64,000 nt of DNA, from assembly GCA_028865615.1 (NCBI GenBank), contig JAGWJT010000001.1, positions 1,601-65,600 of the forward strand, given 5' to 3'. A program made the position numbers and the translations under genes. This DNA is from Patescibacteria group bacterium. GTDB lineage: Bacteria > Patescibacteriota > Minisyncoccia > Phycocordibacterales > PALSA-1337. Positions within the stretch are counted from its first letter, which is position 1. Each line of letters begins with the position of its first letter. Below are positions 1 through 57,106 of this stretch, piece after piece. Under the pieces are notes generated by a model, which was given only the letters and a program-made list of their open reading frames with translations, searched no databases and had not been told where the DNA came from.

Positions 1-54
1 AAAACCGCAGACCTTGTACGAGAGGTCTTTGTGCAATATCTTTTCTGGCACGGG

Positions 55-3809: not shown

Positions 3810-4128
3810 CCCTCTTGGCAATCGCCACCCGATTTCTGTCCCAGCAGTACTGTAAACTGTAATGCGAATCAATCTAACTTGTGCCGCTCAATTTCGCACA
3901 AGTTTTGAATGATCGGCCTAAAAGCCTTGATATGCCTAGTATACACCATTTTCTTGTAGCGCAATATGTTCATACAATAAAAATGGGGATAACGATTTAT
4001 GCAATATATCGATTTGACTGTCCATAGCGGCATATGGTAGGGTGTGGGCCGCTAAATAGCGCGACTTTACGCTTGTGCGTAAGGTTCTTGAAAACTGAAA
4101 AAACAACAAAAACAGTATTGAAAGACCT

Positions 4129-6933
4129 ATGAAAAGTATATTCTCGAAACTCACGGGAGGGCTAGTGGCCCTCGTTATCGTTATAGCAGCTTGGTCAAGT
4201 TATGGCCAGACAGCGACAACGACAAAAACAACGACTCAACAAACGGCCAAGCAAGTCTTGGACGGCATCTACTACGATGCAGCACACAACGGCATTCCAT
4301 TGTCTATGTATCCTCCATCGTATCTGGATTACCTCAAATCGCTTGGGAATAGTCCTTATCCGCCACCGGCCAAAAACACAACGACTACCCAAAACGGCAG
4401 TCTCCAACCCCTCGGCAGTCCCTTAGGAGGTCAGCAGTCAGGGCCACCTATGTATCAGTTGATTGATATTGGGACATCACTTAGTAATCAGGGCTACATA
4501 AACAGTATCGCCTATGACATCAACAACGTTGGACAGGTCGTAGGAGATTCGTCTGAAAATTCTGGATATCCATCTTATGGAGCTTTCGTATACCAAAATG
4601 ATTCAGTGCAGATTCTGAATGATCTCGATGGCAATAGTGATGATGACAGTGTTTTTGGTATCAACGATAGCGGCCAAATTGTCGGAGATGCGATTGGCAC
4701 AGACAGGAAACAGCACGCGATCATATATTCAAACGGTCAGATGCAAGTCATAGATGACACCGAGTCCGGTATCGCCTATGGCAGTGCCACTGCGATAAAT
4801 AACAAAGGCAGGGTTGTCGGTAATCTCACCATGAGTGGGACATTCGAATCTCACATGTTTGTCTATGACAATGGTTCGATGCAGGATCTGGGAAACCTCG
4901 GTATGGTCGGTGTCTATGCCGACGATATCAACGATAATTCCATTATCGTCGGTTATGCCTCCGGTGATAACTATACATCGTATGCCTTCTCATACTCAGG
5001 CGGGGTAGTCAATGACATTAATACGTTGGGAGGTAGCTCCAGCTTCGCTCTGGGGATAAACAATAATAACCAGATAGTGGGCAGAGCGTATACATTAAAC
5101 GACATGGCGGTTCACGGTTTTGTTTATACAGACGGAAGCGTGCTTGACCTAGGAGATCCGATTGCAGATCCTGATTATAATGACTATAGCGAAGCATGGG
5201 GTATAAATGACAACGGTGATGTAGTTGGTTATGCCACGACAGATAAGGACGCCCACGACAATCACGCTTTCATCTATACGGGCGGGACTATGTATGATCT
5301 CAATAAGTTGATGCTGAACCCGGAATCCGGCTGGATGCTTGCACAGGCGAATGCGATTAACAATGCCGGGCAAATAGTAGGTTATGAGACAAATCCGCAG
5401 GGACAGTATCATGCATTCTTGTTGAACCCGTTGCCAGACGGATCAGCCACGGCATTGGAAACCGATCAGACAACCACTCCTTCATACGGCAACACGCCCG
5501 TGAAGAATCCTTCGGATAGCGGTCTCGTAGTCATCACTCACGGCTGGACGCATACGGAATCCCAGAGCATGCCGACTGATGTCCCGTGGGTAGACACCAT
5601 ATCAAACATGGTAGTCCAGCGACTGGTATCAGACGGAGTCTCCGGTTGGCAGGTGTTCGGATACAAGTGGCCGGCGGCTTCGTATACGGTTCTACCGGAT
5701 CAGTCCCTGAACAATGCAAAACAGCAAGGCGAGCTCCTTGGTTTGAGCATAGTGGCCGGTGGTTGGACGAAGGTTCACCTCATCGCCCACAGCGCCGGAG
5801 CGGGACTCATAGAGCGGTGCTCTGAAATCATCCGGCAATACGCACCGAATACCGTCATCCAGTGCACGTTCCTCGACCCATACATGGGTTCAGACGGCAG
5901 CGGCTATGCCACATACGGCCAAGCCGCCGATTGGTCTGACTGCTACTACAACAGGGATGCTGAAACCGGGAGCAAGACGGAAGGCTCTCTAGCAAACGCT
6001 TACAACGCCGACATCACACAGTTGGACGATCTGGACAGGGTCAGCGTCCACTACTATATCCCTGGCATCATAAATTCGTCATGCTACAAGACCGTAGCCA
6101 CCCACTTCTGGCCGGTGATGTTCTACTCGAACACCATAGCTGGGACGGTGACATCGGACTATCAAGCATTCGGATACACCTTGAGCCAGGAAGAGGGTAC
6201 GTTCAATAATGCCAAGACGACCTACCAGAAAGGCAACGATCCGGCCCAAGTATTGGGCACTCCAGATCCATCATGCAGCCAAAGCTTCATGTTCGCCGGT
6301 CTGGATACAGTGTCGGGCATCCAAAATCTGTTGCCGACGGTATACTACAGCACGACAGGGACTATCGATGCTTTGGGAAACTGGGCATACCAGTTGTTTG
6401 ATCCTCCGGGCGCTCCGGTATGGCTCGGCATAGTCGTGATACCCACGAACTCTGTGAATGTAGTGTCGTTCGATGCCAAATTCACCAGTGCTTCCGGTTC
6501 TCACGGTCTCTTGTCTGTCTATTGGGACACGGATGTCATCGGATTGGTAGACGAACCAGCTGTTGAGCCAGGAATAAACCATTACAGCATGGCTATCACG
6601 GCTGCTCCCTCGACGACCAGCCACGTCATCGGTTTCCATCTCGATCCGTTCACGAGCGCGCAATCCAGTATCATTGTGACCAATATCGCCTTGGAAGCCA
6701 ACGGAGTAACCCAGAAACCTGTCCTGTCCGTCACGACGAACACGCTCAACGGCTCTCTTGTCTATCAACTGACGGGACAGCCAGCAGAATACACCATACA
6801 GGCTTCGACCAACCTGGCTTCGACCGATTGGCAAAACATCGCTATAGCGTCCGCCACGAACGGAGTCGTGAACTTCGTTGACACAGGTTCGACGAATTGT
6901 CCGTTCCGTTTCTATCGGGCGGTGTCGCAATGA
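4129..6933 (+). CDS. large secreted protein: signal peptide, multiple HAF-family extracellular repeats (N-x-G-Q/D-V/I-VG), lipase-like alpha/beta-hydrolase domain (ITHGW oxyanion region, A-H-S-A-G nucleophile elbow), C-terminal beta-rich module
   Basis: 934 aa; N-terminal MKSIFSKLTGGLVALVIVIAAWSS; at least 8 repeats ending in VVG/IVG (INNVGQVVGDS, INDSGQIVGDA, INNKGRVVGNL, INDNGDVVGYA, INNAGQIVGYE); HLIAHSAGAGL matches the Bacillus-lipase-type AxSxG. Confidence 0.75.
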   Translation: MKSIFSKLTGGLVALVIVIAAWSSYGQTATTTKTTTQQTAKQVLDGIYYDAAHNGIPLSMYPPSYLDYLKSLGNSPYPPPAKNTTTTQNGSLQPLGSPLGGQQSGPPMYQLIDIGTSLSNQGYINSIAYDINNVGQVVGDSSENSGYPSYGAFVYQNDSVQILNDLDGNSDDDSVFGINDSGQIVGDAIGTDRKQHAIIYSNGQMQVIDDTESGIAYGSATAINNKGRVVGNLTMSGTFESHMFVYDNGSMQDLGNLGMVGVYADDINDNSIIVGYASGDNYTSYAFSYSGGVVNDINTLGGSSSFALGINNNNQIVGRAYTLNDMAVHGFVYTDGSVLDLGDPIADPDYNDYSEAWGINDNGDVVGYATTDKDAHDNHAFIYTGGTMYDLNKLMLNPESGWMLAQANAINNAGQIVGYETNPQGQYHAFLLNPLPDGSATALETDQTTTPSYGNTPVKNPSDSGLVVITHGWTHTESQSMPTDVPWVDTISNMVVQRLVSDGVSGWQVFGYKWPAASYTVLPDQSLNNAKQQGELLGLSIVAGGWTKVHLIAHSAGAGLIERCSEIIRQYAPNTVIQCTFLDPYMGSDGSGYATYGQAADWSDCYYNRDAETGSKTEGSLANAYNADITQLDDLDRVSVHYYIPGIINSSCYKTVATHFWPVMFYSNTIAGTVTSDYQAFGYTLSQEEGTFNNAKTTYQKGNDPAQVLGTPDPSCSQSFMFAGLDTVSGIQNLLPTVYYSTTGTIDALGNWAYQLFDPPGAPVWLGIVVIPTNSVNVVSFDAKFTSASGSHGLLSVYWDTDVIGLVDEPAVEPGINHYSMAITAAPSTTSHVIGFHLDPFTSAQSSIIVTNIALEANGVTQKPVLSVTTNTLNGSLVYQLTGQPAEYTIQASTNLASTDWQNIAIASATNGVVNFVDTGSTNCPFRFYRAVSQ

Positions 6934-29786: not shown

Positions 29787-30823
29787 TGGAACAAACCGAC
29801 TATGAAACTCCAGAAGCGTTGGATCAATGACCCAGCTTTTGCGACGGCTGCGGCCGCCACGTTCTGATTGTTGTCATTACCATTGGTTCCGACGGTAGGA
29901 CCTATCAGAGCGCTTGAAGTCGACAGGGCCGGGACATTCTGGCCGTTATTCACGCCGATAGCTCCGGTAGATGTACCGGCTGCCAAAGCGGCCTTATAAG
30001 CGTCGATGACGGAGAGCTCCTTGGCATCCAGAGTCAAAGGCTCGGCGCACGCGATCTCGTTGATCTTCTTGATCGTGGTTATATATGCTACGCCGGAAGC
30101 TTTCGTGGCGCCCCACGGGCCCATGATGTCAGAGAGATATTTCTTCTGGAAAGCCTCGACGGCCTGCTCGGTAGCCTGGTCGAATGTGCCGCTGACAGTC
30201 ACACTCAAGTGTTGGCTGTCCTTGAGGAAAGCCTGGAGCTTGGCGACTTGCGTCCTATCATTGGCCAGGCCCATCTTGAGCAATCCGACAGTGAGAAGCG
30301 GGCAGGAAGTGGTAGCGGTGGAAGTCGAGACATTGGTCGCCAGAGGTACGGCGCTGAAACCGCCGCCGATGTACGAGCCGCTGGAAGAAGTCGAACCCCC
30401 TCCGCCTCCGCCGGTAGGAGTCACCGGAGTGACGGGGGCCGGAGAAGAACCTCCGCTGCTGTTGCTACCCATTTGCGTCGGAACTCCGGTCGTGCCGCCG
30501 GCATTATTAGCGCCGCTCTGCGACGAAACACCGGATGTGCCGCTGAAATCATTGCTACCAGATTGTGTCGGCGTACCTGACGTTCCGCCTGAATTGTTAC
30601 TTGTGGAATCGGACGGGGTAACAGAAGTCGTATCGGCATTTGAGCCGCTGGAAACTGGCGTAGAAACCGAAGTATTGGAACCTGCGGTCGTAGGAACCGC
30701 CGCCGGAGCGCTTGAATTGTCGGTAACTGTCTGGGCCACGGCCGATGGGACAGATTCCGTAAAACTCACAAACCCTATTAATGCGAAAGCGACTATAGTC
30801 GCGTAAATTGTGTATTTTTTCAT
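29780..30823 (-). CDS. secreted Ser/Thr/Gly-rich protein with a putative peptidoglycan-binding (PG_binding_1-like) domain
   Basis: 347 aa; signal peptide; LKMGLANDRTQVAKLQAFLKD...VTVSGTFDQATEQAVEAFQKKYL resembles PG-binding helical repeats. Confidence 0.55.
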   Translation of the reverse strand: MKKYTIYATIVAFALIGFVSFTESVPSAVAQTVTDNSSAPAAVPTTAGSNTSVSTPVSSGSNADTTSVTPSDSTSNNSGGTSGTPTQSGSNDFSGTSGVSSQSGANNAGGTTGVPTQMGSNSSGGSSPAPVTPVTPTGGGGGGSTSSSGSYIGGGFSAVPLATNVSTSTATTSCPLLTVGLLKMGLANDRTQVAKLQAFLKDSQHLSVTVSGTFDQATEQAVEAFQKKYLSDIMGPWGATKASGVAYITTIKKINEIACAEPLTLDAKELSVIDAYKAALAAGTSTGAIGVNNGQNVPALSTSSALIGPTVGTNGNDNNQNVAAAAVAKAGSLIQRFWSFIVGLFHH

Positions 30824-30931
30824 AACGTTCTGACCCTATCATAAACGTATAATAATGTCAATACCTTTTAATAAAATCACCCCGCTCGCGAAAGCAGGGT
30901 GTTTTGATGCAGTCGGCGGCCGTTTGACCGC

Positions 30932-31948
30932 CTATTTTGTGCCGTTTGCCCCGACGGTTTGAGGCGGGACAACAACAGGTTCGGTCGAGTGGGCCACGTG
31001 AGTCATTGGCGTACTCGCCTCACTGGCCTTGTAGAAGGCGTATGGGTAAACCGGCGAGTCCTGGTAAACTCCCTCGTTCATGTTCGTGCCAATCCATGTC
31101 CACACAGGTTTGACCGTGAGATTGAGCGAGCGCTCAAGGTTGTAATACAAACCCAGGTGACGCTGCCCCTCGATGTTCACATTGGCAACGCTGCCGGCCA
31201 AGTCAACACTCGGCGGATCAACATAGACCACCGAACTCATCCGGTTAGTCATTCCGCCGTTCGGCATAATGATGGCAAAGAAGTTCGTCATCTCCATTAC
31301 ACCCTTGAAGTAATTCAAGTCGTTGGCCAGCGCCGACGAGTCAGTGCAATAGTAGCCGATGCGAATAATGCCAAATACCCGTGTGACCGGAGTGGTTATG
31401 GGTTCGCTGTTGTGATAATCCGCAATAAGCTTGCCCCCGCTCCAGACCTGACCGCGCAGCGTGGTGCCGAATGTCAACTGGCTGTTGTCAGCCGTATTCG
31501 TGGCAAGATTACCACCATAGCCAAGCGTATTGGCGTGATCGGTTGACCAACTGGCAAACCGGACAGAATTGACCTGGAACGGCGCCGAATCGCTGATGTC
31601 GAACGCCCAACCTATCTGGCTGCCGTTCTCACCGGCAAAAGTGCCCGTCGGATTGTTCGTGCCATCCCATGATGAGAACGTAGCTGGTCCGAAACAGATC
31701 TGGCACCCGCGCAGGACGTGAGGCGAATTCAAAGCGGCCGGGTTCGTGGCCACATCGGTGTTGATGAAGCCGACTGACCACCCCTTGTCCATGAATTCCA
31801 TGATGTTCTGCACAGCCACCGTGTAATTTGTGCTAATCTGTGCCGGCACGATGAAGAACTTGGTGCTAACCTGCGGTGCCGATTGAGCGACACTGTAGAT
31901 TGCCGAGATCATCATGACCATCATAGTAGTCAACTTGTGAATTTTCAT
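30932..31948 (-). CDS. hypothetical secreted protein
   Basis: 338 aa with N-terminal signal peptide; no recognisable domain. Confidence 0.55.
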   Translation of the reverse strand: MKIHKLTTMMVMMISAIYSVAQSAPQVSTKFFIVPAQISTNYTVAVQNIMEFMDKGWSVGFINTDVATNPAALNSPHVLRGCQICFGPATFSSWDGTNNPTGTFAGENGSQIGWAFDISDSAPFQVNSVRFASWSTDHANTLGYGGNLATNTADNSQLTFGTTLRGQVWSGGKLIADYHNSEPITTPVTRVFGIIRIGYYCTDSSALANDLNYFKGVMEMTNFFAIIMPNGGMTNRMSSVVYVDPPSVDLAGSVANVNIEGQRHLGLYYNLERSLNLTVKPVWTWIGTNMNEGVYQDSPVYPYAFYKASEASTPMTHVAHSTEPVVVPPQTVGANGTK

Positions 31949-39567: not shown

Positions 39568-39688
39568 GAAACTAGCGGACAAGGCCTGACTGACACTTCG
39601 CAGGCGATTCCTAGCAAGGAATCGCCGAGATGTAGCGCGGCCTCTGCAGAGGCCGACGCGTGTCAGGAAGGCCTTGTCCGCTAGTTTC
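39568..39688. repeat. palindromic intergenic element, copy E (diverged core; 20-bp perfect outer arms gaaactagcggacaaggcct / aggccttgtccgctagtttc), overlapping the murA stop
   Basis: Core ttcgcaggcgattcctagcaaggaatcgccgagatgtagcgcggcctctgcagaggccgacgcgtg; the right arm includes the murA TAG stop. Confidence 0.6.
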
Positions 39689-41015
39689 TAACTACATCGG
39701 CTCCTAAACTTTGTAATCTTTCCTCCAACCGTTCATAGCCGCGATCGATCAGTCCGATGTTCGTCACGGTCGTCTCTCCCTCGGCGCACAAAGCGGCCAG
39801 GACGACGGCGAAGCCTGCACGGATGTCGAGAGCTTTCATTTCCCTGCCCGCCGGCAAAGCTTTCAATCGCGAGGGCCCGCTTATAGTTATCTCTTGCGAA
39901 CTAACGGTATCTATATCCGCACCCAAAGACTTTAGGTCATCGACATATTTGAACCGCCCTTCGTATATAGTCTCCGTAAGCTTGCTCCTGCCGGAGACTT
40001 GGGTCATATACACCGCTATCATCGGCTGCAAATCGGTTGCGAATCCGGGATACTCCTTGGTCGTGACGTCAAAGGTCTTGAATGAGGAATCGGGCATTGT
40101 ATTGCCACTGACGACTATCGAAGAGTCTGTCGTCTTTATCGGCACACCCGATAACTTCAACAGATCGATGAGCGCACCTAGATGTTCCGGCCTGCAATCA
40201 TCGATCTTCAATTCATCGGCGCACAGTGCGCCTAGTACGAGATAACTGCCGGCCTCTATGCGGTCGGGGATGGCAACATACGGATTCTTAGCGGCCGACT
40301 CTGACGAAAGCAACCTGCCGCCTGTGCCTTCTATCTCAATAGTTGACGTGCCTACGCCTTTTATCTTCGCTCCGCATGCGTTCAGCCATTCGACTACATT
40401 GACTATCTCTGGTTCGCAAGCGCAATTCTCAAGCACAGTCTTGCCTTCCGCCAATACGGCGGCCATCATCAGCGTCTCTGTGGCGCCGACCGATACCTTC
40501 TTGAATATGATGTTTGCGCCCTTTAGGCTTTGGACTTTGGACTTTGGACTTACACTTATGTCATACACCCCATCTTCCTTGGTCATGGCACCCATGGCTT
40601 CGTAACCGCTAATAAATAAATCTATAGGCCTGGCCCCTATGACGCATCCACCCGGTGCCGGAAATGTAGCCTTGCCGAAACGGCCGAGAAGCGGGCCCGT
40701 CAGCACGACCGATGCGCGCATCTTCCCGGCCAGCTCGCCGTCTATATCGGTCGATCGCAAACCGCGGGTATCTATCTCCATTGCGTGGTCTATCTCGCCG
40801 CTATCCTTGGTCCAAGAGACGTCCGCGCCAAGCTTACGCAGTATCTCGGCTTGTATGTGGATATCCTCGGTATGAGGCATATTCTTGAGACGGACCGGCC
40901 CGTCAAATAGAACTGCGGCGGCCATAGCCTTCAAGGCGGCATTCTTGGCACCGTTCACCCGAACGGTTCCTTTGAGCGTCTTCTTGCCTCCAAGCCCTTG
41001 TATAACGAATTTTTC
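39681..41015 (-). CDS. murA: UDP-N-acetylglucosamine 1-carboxyvinyltransferase MurA
   Basis: Start assigned to MEKFVIQG (41015); EPSP-synthase fold motifs; the ORF extension to 41069 would overlap the upstream gene. Confidence 0.85.
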   Translation of the reverse strand, partial: EKFVIQGLGGKKTLKGTVRVNGAKNAALKAMAAAVLFDGPVRLKNMPHTEDIHIQAEILRKLGADVSWTKDSGEIDHAMEIDTRGLRSTDIDGELAGKMRASVVLTGPLLGRFGKATFPAPGGCVIGARPIDLFISGYEAMGAMTKEDGVYDISVSPKSKVQSLKGANIIFKKVSVGATETLMMAAVLAEGKTVLENCACEPEIVNVVEWLNACGAKIKGVGTSTIEIEGTGGRLLSSESAAKNPYVAIPDRIEAGSYLVLGALCADELKIDDCRPEHLGALIDLLKLSGVPIKTTDSSIVVSGNTMPDSSFKTFDVTTKEYPGFATDLQPMIAVYMTQVSGRSKLTETIYEGRFKYVDDLKSLGADIDTVSSQEITISGPSRLKALPAGREMKALDIRAGFAVVLAALCAEGETTVTNIGLIDRGYERLEERLQSLGADVVRN

Positions 41016-41035
41016 CATTGAATTCATCGATCGAT

Positions 41036-41614
41036 TCATGGCCTTGAAGCTATCATAAGCCTGTACCAATATCTATCGCCGAAGAAGCTTGACAACAGGC
41101 GCTGTTCTTCTATACTTCTAGTGTACGGAGACCGACAATCGATCTTCGTAAACACTCTGGCTTCGGCCTCGGGGACCCCTGATTCTGGGGTCCTTGTACT
41201 TTTTATGAGCATATCGATTATATTGGCAGTGAGCGTTGTATATTCAGTTATAGACAGTGTAGAGACCTTGTTTATGAGTCTCTTTGTATCGAATGTTCTG
41301 GCTTGCAATATCAACATGTCGTTAGTGATGTCGTTCAATGAAAATTTGATCCTATAATCGCCGGTCTTGATTTTTGTGGTCAAGGGCACTCCCCAGAAGA
41401 CCTTATCAGTGAACTTTTTCAATACGATAACGGGTCTGCCGAAATCATCCGCGTATGAATCTTGTTCTGAACCGATGTTTACGCCTACGGCGCACCACCA
41501 TATCTCGCGCTCATGAAAATTAACCGCCTGACTTTTGCCGTCAAGCGCTTTCTTGTAAGCGTTCCACCTGTCGAAATCCTTCGTCGCCACCGCGACATTG
41601 TAGCAGAAAATCAA
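41036..41614 (-). CDS. MazF/PemK-family (CcdB/MazF fold) endoribonuclease toxin-like protein with N- and C-terminal extensions; non-ATG start; no adjacent antitoxin evident
   Basis: HEREIWWCAVGVNIGSEQD...GRPVIVLKK, VFWGVPLTTKIK and LILQARTFDTKRLINKVSTLSITEY parallel the PemK blocks (GEIW..GHEQ..RPVLIV; PVTS; DQ.RTIDK.RL). No Met before residue ~100, so the start is TTG or GTG. Confidence 0.5.
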   Translation of the reverse strand: MIFCYNVAVATKDFDRWNAYKKALDGKSQAVNFHEREIWWCAVGVNIGSEQDSYADDFGRPVIVLKKFTDKVFWGVPLTTKIKTGDYRIKFSLNDITNDMLILQARTFDTKRLINKVSTLSITEYTTLTANIIDMLIKSTRTPESGVPEAEARVFTKIDCRSPYTRSIEEQRLLSSFFGDRYWYRLMIASRP

Positions 41615-41736
41615 TTTCGCAACAAAAAAATAGTTAGAAAAACAACGTCATTTTAACACCGTTGTCAATACTGCCACCTTTCCTCATTCAAGGTATATTC
41701 AAGGCACGGAATACACCAAGCCGATAAATAACAACT

Positions 41737-43659
41737 ATGAACCTCATCACTGTCATACCCATCACCCGCCAGAAAGTGGCACCGACGCTGGCATATTTCA
41801 CCGCTTCGGAAGTGCCCGTGGGGGCGGTGGTGTCGGTGCCTTTGCGGTCAAAGACGATACACGCCATAGTCACCGACACCAGACCGGTCGAAGACTTGAA
41901 AGCCGAGATACGTTCCGCCCCGTTCGAGATACGCAAGCTCGGCAAGGTAAAGGCCGACGCCTTTTTCCCTTCCTCATTCATGCAAGCGGCGGCGGAACTG
42001 GCCGAATATTACGCCACGGCCACTGGCAACATCATCCGCGCCATGGTATCGGAAGCCATACTCGACAGCGCCAACAAGATAGCTCCGCCCCTGCCGCTCC
42101 AAGCCAGCTTCATCACGGCCGCCACGCCGGCCCCGGACGAGACCTACGCCGTGCAAGGCGACGATGCGGACCGTTTGTCGGCATGGAGGAGCCTCATCCG
42201 CCAAGAATTTGCCCGCAAACGATCGGTGGCCATATACGCCCCTACGGCCGAAGACGTTAGGAGTATATATGAATCCCTGGAGAAAGGCATAGAGGGATAT
42301 ATATTCATGCTGCACGGCGGGTTGTCCAAGAAGAGGCTCATCGAGACTTGGGGATCGGCGGCTGATACCGACCACCCGGTGGTCATAGTGGCGGCCGGAA
42401 GCTTCCCTGTCCTGCCAAGGGCGGATATAGATACGATCGTCATCGAACGCGAGAACGGCCGCGGCTGGATATCGGAACGGATGCCGTATATAGACTTGAG
42501 ACACGCTCTTGAAACAGTACACCGCCGGGCCAAACGGACCGTCCATCTGGCTGATGCCCTGCTATCCATCCGATCGCTCCACCGCCTCGACGAGCACGAC
42601 ATCGCTGAAGGTTCGCCGTTCAAATGGCGCTCCATATCGCGGGCGGCCGATGCGCTCATAGACATGAAGCACGAACCCGTCAGGGGCGCGGCCCAACCGG
42701 AAAAAGCCGGCTTCCGCGTGCTTTCACCGGAGCTCGAAGGCTTGATAGCCCGCAATATCGAAGACAACGCCCATATGTTCATAATGGCCGTAAGGCGTGG
42801 TTTGGCTACGGCTACGGTCTGCGACGACTGCGACGCCGTGATCGTATGCAAGTCCTGCTCGGCGCCAGTAGTCCTCCACGCCTCGGCTAACGGCGCGAAC
42901 TTCTTCATGTGCCACAAATGCGGCGAGCGTATGGACGCCGATACGCAATGCGCCAATTGCGGAGGCTGGAGATTGAATCCGTTGGGCGTCGGGACCGATC
43001 GGGTGGCCCAGGCCGTCAAGGAAAGGTTCCCGAAAGCGGATATCATCCGCCTGGACGCCGATCTGGCCAAGACGGCCAAAGAGATGGCCGAGGCCATGAA
43101 GCGATTCATGGCAAAACCAGGTTCGATCCTCGTAGGCACGGAAGCGGCCTTGCTCCGCTTGCCTGAACCGGTGGAGCATGTGGCGGTCGCTTCGTTGGAT
43201 TCCCTGTTCGCTCTGCCCGACTACCGTATAACGGAAAAGATCATGTATGCCATAGTCCGCCTTCGCGCCGCTGCGGATAGGACCGTCCTCATACAGACCC
43301 GCCGTCCGGAAGAAGCCGTCTTCGGCTACGGCCTCAAAGGCAACCTGTCTGATTTCTACCGTTCGGTCCTGGCCGAACGCAAACAGTTCTCGTATCCGCC
43401 GTTCTCGACCCTCATCAAGATAACCCTCGAAGGCAAAAAAGCGGATATCGCCAAGAAGATGGGCGAGCTGCAGTCGGCCATGTCCCCTCGAGAGCTGGAA
43501 GTCTTCCCTGCTTTCACTTCCACGGTGCGTGGCGTTTCGGTCATCCACGGCCTGATCCGCTTGCCGGAACACGACTGGCCGGACGGCGAGCTGGTGCGCT
43601 TCCTGCGCTCTCTGCCGCCTGAAGTAATCATCAAAATAGACCCAGAGAGTTTGCTGTGA
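41737..43659 (+). CDS. priA: primosomal protein N' (PriA)-like with 3'BD and Cys-rich zinc-binding region; helicase Walker A not detectable
   Basis: 640 aa; N-terminal 3'-binding-domain pattern and CDDCDAVIVCKSC...CHKCG...CANCGG zinc finger; no GKT motif. Confidence 0.6.
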   Translation: MNLITVIPITRQKVAPTLAYFTASEVPVGAVVSVPLRSKTIHAIVTDTRPVEDLKAEIRSAPFEIRKLGKVKADAFFPSSFMQAAAELAEYYATATGNIIRAMVSEAILDSANKIAPPLPLQASFITAATPAPDETYAVQGDDADRLSAWRSLIRQEFARKRSVAIYAPTAEDVRSIYESLEKGIEGYIFMLHGGLSKKRLIETWGSAADTDHPVVIVAAGSFPVLPRADIDTIVIERENGRGWISERMPYIDLRHALETVHRRAKRTVHLADALLSIRSLHRLDEHDIAEGSPFKWRSISRAADALIDMKHEPVRGAAQPEKAGFRVLSPELEGLIARNIEDNAHMFIMAVRRGLATATVCDDCDAVIVCKSCSAPVVLHASANGANFFMCHKCGERMDADTQCANCGGWRLNPLGVGTDRVAQAVKERFPKADIIRLDADLAKTAKEMAEAMKRFMAKPGSILVGTEAALLRLPEPVEHVAVASLDSLFALPDYRITEKIMYAIVRLRAAADRTVLIQTRRPEEAVFGYGLKGNLSDFYRSVLAERKQFSYPPFSTLIKITLEGKKADIAKKMGELQSAMSPRELEVFPAFTSTVRGVSVIHGLIRLPEHDWPDGELVRFLRSLPPEVIIKIDPESLL

Positions 43660-46009: not shown

Positions 46010-46081
46010 TCCGGAGTAGCTCAGCGGTAGAGCGGTCGCCTGTTAAGCGATTGGTCGCTGGTTCGAATCCAGCCTCCGGAG
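46010..46081 (+). tRNA. tRNA-Asn (anticodon GTT)
   Basis: Manual fold: acceptor tccggag/ctccgga, D-arm gctc-agcggta-gagc, anticodon arm gtcgc-ctGTTaa-gcgat, T-arm gctgg-ttcgaat-ccagc; T-run follows. Confidence 0.85.
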
Positions 46082-56345: not shown

Positions 56346-56527
56346 GAAGAGAGTATATCATGCACACTTTAATCTACATAAAACAAGGAGAGTTTGGACT
56401 TCGCTTACATTAGCCAGACATCAATATAATTTTGTGTCAACTTGCAAAATCACCACAGCTTGATATCATTCACGCACAACTAGGACCCCGCGACAAATCC
56501 GCCGTATGGGGAAAGATCAGAAATGAT

Positions 56528-57106
56528 CTAACGGGCATCCTGACCATCCGCCGCAAGGCGGATGGTTGCTTTGCAACGACCAGAAATATGTCGATAGAGT
56601 TCACTCGCGGTTCCTGTTGATTTGTTGTGATAGGATCTGACCAACCAAGCCAATGCATCAGCAAGCCTGATCATTGGACAAGATCTGTCGTCAACGGTCT
56701 TTATAGATTTTACCGACAACCCTCTGCACCGCAAAGATCGCTTTATCTGGCTTTCATACCATTTAGGTTTTTTACCATCGATATATACTTTCTCTACATC
56801 AATCTCCGTTATAAGTGTGGCCATAGAATCATACAGCTCCTTTACCGGATCTATGGGATTATCAACTATCCTGTATTTGAACGAGAATTTCAGTTTAGAG
56901 ACCTTGATGATAAATTGTCTGCGAATAGACCAACCTCTGCGCGATCCGAAATCTGCCCAATGAAAATCGCTAATACCGAGACGTCTTTCAATGTCTTGAA
57001 TGCCGCGACTAACTGCCGTCTCATCTCTAACTCCTACATAGACCGCCACAAAACTCGATCTATCAGATCTTTTGTGTATACCTGATTCATCAATGAATAT
57101 ATGCAT
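56528..57106 (-). CDS. DUF3800-family protein
   Basis: 192 aa; N-terminal MHIFIDESG is characteristic of DUF3800. Confidence 0.55.
   Translation of the reverse strand: MHIFIDESGIHKRSDRSSFVAVYVGVRDETAVSRGIQDIERRLGISDFHWADFGSRRGWSIRRQFIIKVSKLKFSFKYRIVDNPIDPVKELYDSMATLITEIDVEKVYIDGKKPKWYESQIKRSLRCRGLSVKSIKTVDDRSCPMIRLADALAWLVRSYHNKSTGTASELYRHISGRCKATIRLAADGQDAR

Follow-up and report, generated by a model that had tools for sequence, protein, structure and literature searches.

In this study, we report a two-part module in a stretch of 64,000 nucleotides (nt) from a Patescibacteria group bacterium (contig JAGWJT010000001.1, positions 1,601 to 65,600; the whole stretch is called the window hereafter). 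It comprises a minus-strand gene for a protein with the fold of the MazF/PemK toxins and, on the opposite strand, a predicted small RNA (sRNA) gene that converges on it, and this pairing of toxin and sRNA recurs in hundreds of bacteria. We propose that the two form a toxin-antitoxin (TA)-like module, in which a MazF/PemK-fold endoribonuclease would be paired with a convergent sRNA gene and the abundant sRNA would be the antitoxin. On balance, we consider it probable that this is a MazF-family toxin with an RNA antitoxin; the toxicity of the protein, the antitoxin role of the sRNA and the mechanism are what we infer from the data presented below.

The promoter and the hairpin of the sRNA gene were found in the window by a consensus scan, on the plus strand and antisense to the toxin gene. 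The parts of the gene, in window coordinates, are the following:

41089..41116, plus strand: sRNA promoter, with TTGACA at 41089-94, a 16-nt spacer and TATACT at 41111-16 (11/12 consensus positions)
41121..41205, plus strand: predicted antisense sRNA of ~83 nt, based on covariance model (CM) match, fold and covariation
41121-41155, plus strand: hairpin P0 of the sRNA, an extra 5' hairpin present in the long-form clade only
41159-41168, plus strand: mini-hairpin P1 of the sRNA, GGCUUCGGCC (GGC-UUCG-GCC)
41170-41196, plus strand: hairpin P2 of the sRNA, GC-rich and terminator-like
41200-41204, plus strand: U-run of the sRNA, after P2

The CM matched the window sRNA at 41151-41204 (31.7 bits, E = 2.4e-7), and its predicted fold has an energy of -36.3 kcal/mol (z = -4.5). 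Over its ~83 nt the sRNA is perfectly complementary to toxin codons ~129-157 and, given this full complementarity to the toxin coding sequence (CDS), type I-like antisense control is possible. A known RNA family was discarded, as Rfam gave no match to the window element at the gathering threshold and none in five loci at E <= 10, the Rfam pemK motif being likewise unmatched.

Toxin relatives were encoded in 304 of 332 candidate stretches from GTDB species genomes, mostly of Patescibacteria, with some of Alphaproteobacteria, Bdellovibrionales and Trueperaceae. The antisense consensus at the toxin 3' end consisted of TTGACA/T, a 17-nt spacer and TAnnnT, often preceded by TG, and the commonest -10 boxes were TATACT, TACTAT, TATCAT and TATAAT. 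At 12-13 nt past the -10 box follows (U)ACA(C/A)AU-GGCUUCGGCC-UC(CGAG), and then a variable GC-rich hairpin and a U-run; the P1 stem also occurs as UGCC-AUUC-GGCA. The 5' ACA-P1 motif is kept from Patescibacteria to Alphaproteobacteria. A simple regular expression located the module antisense at the toxin 3' end in 60/88 loci, and the covariance model R1, built from eight sequences and run over 757 kb on both strands, did so in 59/84; with both methods combined, at least 72 of the 84 loci carried the element at that place. Extra paralogs found by tblastn each had a 3' CM match of their own (four in locus L018, three in L024 and two in L082). A promoter of the form TTGnnn-16..18-TAnnnT was present in 48 of the 54 unique elements, with a -10-to-P1 spacing of 12-13 nt in 35 of those 48. 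With regard to covariation, 97.6% of the cells were paired and both sides change in 11/12 pairs, which none of 500 shuffles reached. The sRNA gene would be made up of its own near-consensus sigma-70 promoter, a short single-stranded 5' 'ACA(C/A)AU' leader, P1, P2 and a U-run.

Three classes were recognized by the position of the element relative to the toxin stop codon. In the first, short toxin ORFs (open reading frames) stop at the sRNA U-run; in the second, ORFs of ~148 amino acids (aa) cross the sRNA and stop at a TAA complementary to its 5' 'UUACA'; in the third, to which the window clade belongs, the ORF continues through the sRNA promoter. In most relatives the sRNA would end exactly at the toxin stop codon, and in the window clade that stop would have been lost, so that the ORF extends over the whole sRNA gene and its promoter as far as the murA start. 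Two loci deserve separate mention. In the Kaiserbacteria contig L018 (28-3867), four MazF-like paralogs follow one another in tandem, and every one of them has an antisense element of its own at the 3' end. In L025 (3640-5781) a MazF-like ORF is stop-free for 709 codons, running into a large repeat-rich protein and across two copies of the element (CM matches 4047-4100 and 4150-4214); this could reflect a genuine fusion, or else an artefact of assembly or reading frame.

The association was also approached in reverse, by a DNA-pattern scan of metagenome contigs for the RNA motif alone, which gave 120 matches. An intact convergent MazF-like ORF lay no more than 150 nt away in 82 of them, and at least five more were intact sRNAs beside remnants of a toxin gene. 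Nine matches were cut by contig ends and approximately eight were chance matches inside GC-rich genes; three were convergent to hicA, three to rpoC, and approximately ten had no recognisable partner. The linkage between sRNA and toxin is strong, not absolute. In L095, L123, L142, L146 and L177 an intact sRNA stands beside fragmented or internally deleted MazF-like genes, indicating that the toxin decayed and the RNA was retained. As to the other partners, the element of L101 (4042-4100, plus strand), with promoter and terminator, converges on the 3' end of a hicA that belongs to a complete hicB-hicA pair (hicA 4093-4335 and hicB 4328-4633, both on the minus strand), and the same layout is found in L186 and L205. 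In L097, L135 and L185, which are identical in sequence, it converges on the 3' end of rpoC with a good promoter and no U-run, and L097 has a MazF-like gene 4.4 kb from that element. The RNA motif was not found in IMG/VR viral contigs, on which ground a phage origin of the module was rejected.

The features of the gene for the protein partner are:

41036..41590, minus strand: MazF/PemK-like CDS of 184 aa, with GTG start at 41590-41588 and TGA stop at 41038-41036
41537..41581, minus strand: subfamily-specific N-terminal helix KDFDRWNAYKKALDG, residues 4-18, absent from canonical MazF
41201..41509, minus strand: MazF fold proper, residues 28-130, containing R52-P53 and T71
41036..41200, minus strand: C-terminal extension, residues 131-184, based on codon alignment and AlphaFold2 (AF2) model
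41597..41602, minus strand: TACAAT -10 box, from the sequence, 6 nt upstream of the GTG start
41620-41625, minus strand: weak -35 of the toxin gene, TTGTTG, from the sequence

An earlier note on this DNA had taken the product for a PemK/MazF-like toxin, and the profile searches proposed there as a check agree with it. The Pfam family PF02452 (PemK_toxin) matched with a score of 31.7 bits (E = 1.8e-7), the gathering cut-off being 23.1, over ORF residues 36-135 and profile positions 3-108 of 109 (106/109 positions). No match was obtained for the toxin in NCBIfam, nor in PDB with its single sequence, and a profile of the family made from 120 homologs matched the MazF sequences of PDB with E = 4e-8. 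The AF2 model had a mean predicted local distance difference test score (pLDDT) of 84.6, mostly above 90 for residues 1-130, and Foldseek paired it with the MazF of S. aureus, MazF-mt1 of M. tuberculosis and the MazF of B. subtilis (probability 1.00; target-normalised template modelling score of ~0.7), all of the top 50 matches being MazF/PemK/MoxT/EndoA structures. By model and Foldseek, the protein has the SH3-like barrel fold of MazF/Kid/CcdB. Among the 120 homologs R52-P53 is invariant and T71 nearly so, and these positions align with 'RPVVII' and with the Thr of 'AAIT' in S. aureus MazF. We take the catalytic residues to be R25 and T48 of the B. subtilis and S. aureus MazF, an identity that reportedly goes back to Simanshu et al. 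2013. The window toxin is a MazF/PemK-fold protein with its catalytic positions intact, and under the explanation that we consider best it would be a catalytically competent endoribonuclease.

The minus-strand ORF 41036..41614 was confirmed, and it has 192 aa when counted from its TTG. The earliest internal Met is residue 100 of that ORF, and so a non-ATG start is required, as the earlier note had stated. Homologs open with M-x-KDFDxWN in the alignment, and the NCBI protein P0001, 99% identical to the window protein and named 'type II toxin-antitoxin system PemK/MazF family toxin [Patescibacteria group bacterium]', has 184 aa; on these grounds the start is placed at the GTG at 41590 and not at the TTG at 41614, and the maximal ORF from that TTG is probably unused. 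The -10 box lies 6 nt from this GTG, implying a putatively leaderless toxin mRNA in the window. Across the family, TAnnnT was found 4-10 nt before the toxin start in 40/78 loci, against 13% of control windows, and a Shine-Dalgarno (SD)-like motif in just 6/78, so that many of the toxin mRNAs look leaderless.

Extensions at both ends of the fold had been described in the earlier note, and both exist and are conserved. The N-terminal one, of ~27 aa, includes the extra 'KDFDxWNxxKK' helix that is the hallmark of the subfamily; K4, W9 and K13 of this helix are nearly invariant among the 120 homologs, and its residues 6-18 were modelled at pLDDT above 88. The subfamily is large (806 clusters at 50% identity, E <= 1e-30).

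The C-terminal extension, of ~54 aa, is conserved across 13 clusters. Its translation crosses the antisense sRNA gene together with the promoter of that gene, which makes this DNA dual-coding. S159-I160 is encoded by AGTATA, coinciding with the antisense -10, and L166-S167 by TTGTCA, coinciding with the antisense -35. Similarly, the E-A-E-A stretch (GAG GCC GAA GCC) corresponds to the hairpin GGCUUCGGCC of P1, and 'K..TP..GV' to the antisense U-run and hairpin arms. The codons of P1, of the -10 (AGT ATA) and of the -35 (TTG TCA) showed zero synonymous change in six long-form loci whose proteins are only ~55% identical. The last 16 codons (FFGDRY...) vary synonymously, with GGC GAT AGA, GGT GAC CGC and GGC GAC CGT in different loci, and are under selection at the amino-acid level. 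From the frozen middle and the synonymously varying tail it follows that the extension is translated, with its tail selected as protein and its middle dictated by the RNA gene and promoter. The '50-aa C-terminal extension' of the window clade is explained by the loss of the stop and the subsequent read-through.

This pattern bears on the possibility that the extension is a protein antitoxin fused in cis, whose acidic 'SEAEA' and helix would fold into the RNA-binding groove in the manner of MazE and yield an autoinhibited single chain. Conservation across 13 clusters, the amino-acid selection on FFGDRY...RL and a helix predicted by AF2 at residues 160-181 would fit such a role. Against it, the most conserved residues (S159-I160, L166-S167, E-A-E-A and K..TP..G) are frozen as nucleotides and coincide with the -10, the -35, P1 and the terminator; most of the family has no extension, or has the RNA-dictated part alone; and AF2 confidence over the extension is 47-72, without any Pfam match there. 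We give this explanation very little credit. The extension as a new domain was set aside as well, its invariant residues being codons frozen by antisense signals and its AF2 confidence low. Some further signals were seen in this tail. The sRNA -35 lies within a 7-nt palindrome, TTGACAA/TTGTCAA (window 41068-41095), and a minus-strand TTGTCA-16-GATATT in the toxin tail is a weak promoter-like site pointing at murA, whose -10 is overlapped by the conserved GDRY codons (GAT AGA TAT). The murA gene may have a promoter of its own inside the toxin tail.

It must be noted that, apart from the sRNA, no partner was found for the toxin. There is no antitoxin-sized ORF in the 146-bp (base pair) gap upstream of its gene, in agreement with the earlier note, and no conserved small upstream ORF in 78 family loci, which excludes an upstream MazE-like peptide. 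Gene calls around the short-form loci and the plasmid copies gave no protein antitoxin neighbour. PADLOC gave no match for the module, and a known defence system was excluded on that basis. Among the options that the earlier note had left, an orphan toxin whose antitoxin is very small comes closest; the idea of a peptide in the upstream gap did not hold, and the candidate is instead the antisense sRNA at the 3' end.

The nearest precedent for the module comes from plasmids. A tblastn search against plasmids found members of the subfamily on pVir of Campylobacter jejuni 81-176 and on Helicobacter and Nitratiruptor plasmids, and at each plasmid copy a convergent promoter of the TGnTATAAT type is accompanied by hairpins that end at the toxin stop codon. 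The pVir member, pVir0047 (30634-31038, 405 nt), is 34% identical and has the FDEWN..KK helix. Convergent to CJJ81176_pVir0047 is the sRNA CJpv3, transcribed from the minus strand (31119 to 31043), whose 77-nt RNA was verified on a Northern blot (PMC3656092, Tables S5 and S12). In the differential RNA-seq of 81-176, its transcription start site (TSS) had a step height of 16164, which is the highest value of the plasmid, whereas the toxin TSS at 30608 had one of 28 (PMC3656092). CJpv3 lies exactly where the sRNA is predicted and ends 5 nt past the toxin stop codon, its published upstream sequence is the promoter that we had predicted from sequence, and the toxin mRNA of pVir0047 has a 26-nt leader. 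The toxin belongs to the same subfamily and has a convergent 77-nt sRNA with a strong TGnTATAAT promoter, but the RNA sequence differs: the CPR-type motif (candidate phyla radiation, CPR) was not found by CM at the pVir and other plasmid copies, whose RNA is not recognisably homologous to it. The convergent sRNAs of the Helicobacter/Campylobacter plasmids L214, L215 and L212 share a motif of their own, distinct from that of the CPR, in which two hairpins with U-rich loops are followed by a terminal hairpin that begins with 'GUUGCCC(C/U)G'. On pVir, a type I system is reported whose antitoxin is the antisense RNA CjrA (PMC10470494; PMC7826846). Possibly, pVir0047/CJpv3 and the CjpT/CjrA pair are the same. 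CjpT/CjrA was reportedly described as a type I system by Shen et al. 2016, and its toxin may be 'Cjp47'.

The pVir data are also relevant for deciding if the element is a gene at all. It could be a cis feature of the transcript or the DNA, such as a 3'-untranslated region stabiliser, a processing hairpin, a bidirectional terminator or a protein-binding site, with the promoter hexamers being incidental. P2 immediately follows the stop codon, which is the expected place of a hairpin at the 3' end, and the asymmetry of G-U versus A-C in the long-form P0 is ambiguous between the strands. Nevertheless, TTGACA/TTGACT, a 16-18-nt spacer and TAnnnT occur in 48/54 elements at a fixed 12-13 nt from P1, the U-run is solely on the antisense side, the hexamers are frozen at synonymous sites, and the homologous position of pVir is the strongest primary TSS of the plasmid and has a Northern-verified 77-nt RNA. 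A cis element is, in our opinion, distinctly improbable.

With respect to the genomic setting, the neighbours are as follows:

41737-43659, plus strand: priA, the divergent upstream neighbour, as context
39681-41039, minus strand: murA, the co-directional downstream neighbour, as context outside the module
41036..41039, minus strand: ATGA overlap, from the sequence, between the toxin stop TGA and the candidate murA ATG (41039-41037)

The gene is indeed wedged between murA and priA, as had been described, and it heads a murA-mreB-holB gene row. Alternative murA starts are present at 41027 and 41018, and in homologs murA starts 10-27 nt past the toxin stop, unlike the in-frame ATGA overlap of the window. 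The order priA <-> mazF-like -> murA -> mreB -> holB is common to seven relatives, with identities of 46-58% for the MazF-like protein, 54-59% for MurA and 42-59% for PriA. The four closest relatives by MurA (62-73% identity) keep fmt-def-priA and murA-mreB-holB and have between these flanks no toxin gene, no remnant and no sRNA element. A quick neighbour-joining tree of MurA+MreB+PriA scattered the module-less genomes among the carriers, and therefore points to ancestral presence at the site and at least three clean losses. In the closest relative (L217, 3049-3500; MurA 73%) the priA-murA gap is 452 bp long, gene-free and without similarity to the module.

In this regard, the earlier note had offered a domesticated RNase in a core operon as one option. 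Under this explanation, a solitary MazF-type RNase would have been domesticated in the murA-mreB-holB operon, with an unlinked neutraliser if any, and the sRNA would merely tune the expression of the toxin gene or of the murA operon. The position before murA kept in seven relatives, the MazF-like identity being similar to those of MurA and PriA, the overlap of the toxin stop with the murA ATG and the amino-acid selection on the toxin tail are favourable to it, and a murA promoter could make use of the palindromic -35 (TTGACAA/TTGTCAA) as well. There are precedents too: MazF-mx of Myxococcus xanthus has no adjacent mazE and is reportedly neutralised in trans by the transcription factor MrpC, and aMEF, an antisense RNA of E. 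coli mazEF with a poorly conserved promoter, stimulates expression in the presence of MazE. Unlike in MazF-mx, the conserved partner of the subfamily is a linked RNA gene and, unlike in aMEF, there is no MazE and the sRNA promoter is among the most conserved features. Against domestication, the four closest relatives lack the gene with the flanks intact and the tree implies at least three losses; the majority of the family is found at unrelated sites, on plasmids or among tandem paralogs; and the linkage of the sRNA is with the toxin gene rather than with murA. We therefore regard domestication as improbable. An 'essential domesticated core gene' is ruled out by the absence of the module from the closest relatives, and this absence with conserved flanks, which the earlier note had proposed to look for in related genomes, speaks against a core gene and not against a toxin. 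The module is present in diverse genomic settings, on plasmids and in the form of tandem paralogs, and its clean losses, plasmid copies, paralog arrays and decayed copies amount to the population behaviour of a toxin-antitoxin-like element rather than of an essential domesticated enzyme. It is a dispensable toxin-antitoxin-like element, not a domesticated core gene.

For the RNA-antitoxin explanation, which we prefer, two routes may be considered. In a type I-like route, the duplex of sRNA and mRNA would lead to RNase III cleavage or to a translation block. In a type III-like route, additional or alternative to the former, the sRNA would bind the RNase directly as a pseudo-substrate. Classical MazF recognition sites are ACA and UACAU, and the 5' ACA-P1 motif, conserved across phyla and unneeded for cis-antisense action, fits recognition by the RNase itself; direct binding of this kind may thus occur. 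AbiF/RCd22 is a case in which an endoribonuclease toxin is neutralised by a directly bound RNA.

Several points weigh against an RNA antitoxin and must be considered together. The promoter and terminator of the CPR-type sRNA are consensus matches backed by their conservation, and both the toxicity of the protein and its neutralisation by the RNA are putative. The covariation was counted on a model-fitted alignment, and P2 is a terminator, of which any would covary. Since the sRNA of the short forms and of pVir reaches no further than the stop codon, antisense action would there need read-through of the toxin mRNA. A sense-strand terminator beyond the sRNA gene was not enriched (17/135, against a background of 13%), and the classical 3'-overlap architecture with a defined sense terminator was excluded for this reason. 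Neither was there any signal of cognate pairing of the sRNA with the 5' end of the toxin mRNA; pairing with the toxin start region was rejected, as cognate, non-cognate and shuffled duplexes gave alike energies (-10.8, -10.5 and -11.2 kcal/mol, respectively). The element is not exclusive to this toxin, being also convergent to hicA of a complete hicB-hicA pair or to rpoC, or alone. Finally, CjpT is possibly but not necessarily pVir0047, CJpv2 with the 41-aa gene pVir0034 being an alternative pairing. An anti-SD function was discarded too: the sRNA linker has CCUCC, yet the toxin mRNAs are mostly SD-less and leaderless-looking.

Going a step further, the module could represent a large unrecognised TA class, in which one convergent sRNA of ~50 nt, with a 5' ACA leader and a UUCG mini-hairpin as pseudo-substrate, would neutralise a MazF-fold RNase by binding to it directly. 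This class would bridge type II MazEF and type III ToxIN and would be distributed widely in Patescibacteria, and also in Alphaproteobacteria, Bdellovibrionales and Campylobacterota plasmids; in the window clade, the toxin ORF would have overprinted the whole antitoxin gene and its promoter. A DnaA box beside the antitoxin promoter in about a quarter of the cases would couple toxin release to replication status. Taken with all its parts, we hold this extended proposal as possible, though rather unlikely. As regards the boxes themselves, of 144 unique elements 35 have a match to the DnaA-box consensus TTATCCACA (<= 1 mismatch) within the 40 nt that precede the sRNA -35, and 20 of these matches are perfect; the background in the same loci is 1.2%, and most boxes lie 5-9 or 16 nt from the -35. 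They occur in L018, L022, L025, L031, L041, L094, L106, L138, L148, L151, L161, L191 and others, and the window copy has none. This suggests a DnaA-dependent control of the sRNA in a subset.

Under a further explanation, the MazF-fold protein would be inactive or non-toxic and would bind RNA, with the sRNA as its ligand or cargo in a small ribonucleoprotein. The 5' ACA-P1, conserved across phyla, would be unneeded for a purely cis-antisense RNA, and the element is also found without a toxin gene, both of which would suit such a particle. The catalytic Arg and Thr positions, invariant or nearly so, argue otherwise, as do the location on plasmids, the arrays of paralogs, the patchy losses and the decayed genes beside which the RNA was kept, all of them typical of TA modules. 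We find this explanation hardly probable.

When compared with known systems, the proposed RNA-controlled module fits none entirely. It shares with type II MazEF/PemIK the fold and the catalytic Arg/Thr positions, but a MazE/PemI-type antitoxin was not found in the subfamily, which has instead the extra N-terminal helix, an often leaderless mRNA and a convergent sRNA partner; the adjacent co-transcribed protein antitoxin that defines type II MazEF is absent from the module. An antisense or convergent sRNA overlapping or abutting the toxin, as in type I, is present in the window and in at least 72/84 loci. The small hydrophobic peptide that is usual, although not universal, as type I toxin is not: the toxins of the family are soluble MazF-fold proteins of 127-184 aa. 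Among type I systems, TxpA/RatA and BsrG/SR4 of B. subtilis have 3'-overlapping antisense RNAs, and SymE/SymR and RalR/RalA have enzyme toxins. The module resembles the 3'-overlapping systems in that a strong promoter of its own drives a convergent or antisense sRNA at the toxin 3' end, and differs from them in that the toxin is an RNase and not a membrane peptide, the short-form sRNA does not overlap the CDS and the sRNA is conserved across phyla. Regarding type III (ToxIN, CptIN and TenpIN), ToxN has a Kid/MazF-like fold, and the conserved single-stranded ACA leader with its neighbouring hairpin would be suitable for a pseudo-substrate; nevertheless, the upstream same-strand repeat array processed by the toxin is replaced here by a single-copy element on the opposite strand, at the 3' end. 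In the literature, of which our coverage is incomplete, no description was found of the sRNA motif, of its association with this MazF subfamily or of its spread in Patescibacteria.

A small, easily missed and unannotated 3' RNA gene is the conserved partner of a large MazF subfamily (806 or more clusters at 50% identity). Should the RNA be the antitoxin, the annotation 'type II ... toxin' would be wrong across the subfamily, pipelines that search for TA modules as protein pairs only would miss such modules, and this would be the first RNA-controlled TA family for the CPR, where knowledge of sRNAs is scant. The window copy is in addition a clean example of dual coding, with protein tail, antisense promoter and sRNA in the same 165 bp. 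The idea of an RNA antitoxin is testable in cultured carriers (C. jejuni pVir, Helicobacter suis plasmids and Methylocystis suflitae). In M. suflitae NLS-7 (L079) the predicted sRNA occupies 5385-5441 of the locus, on its minus strand.

Elsewhere in the window, the Rfam motif DUF3800-II RNA was matched at 56476-56545 on the plus strand (54.4 bits, against a gathering score of 43.2), and tRNAs were located at 46010, 48705, 61973 and 62775.

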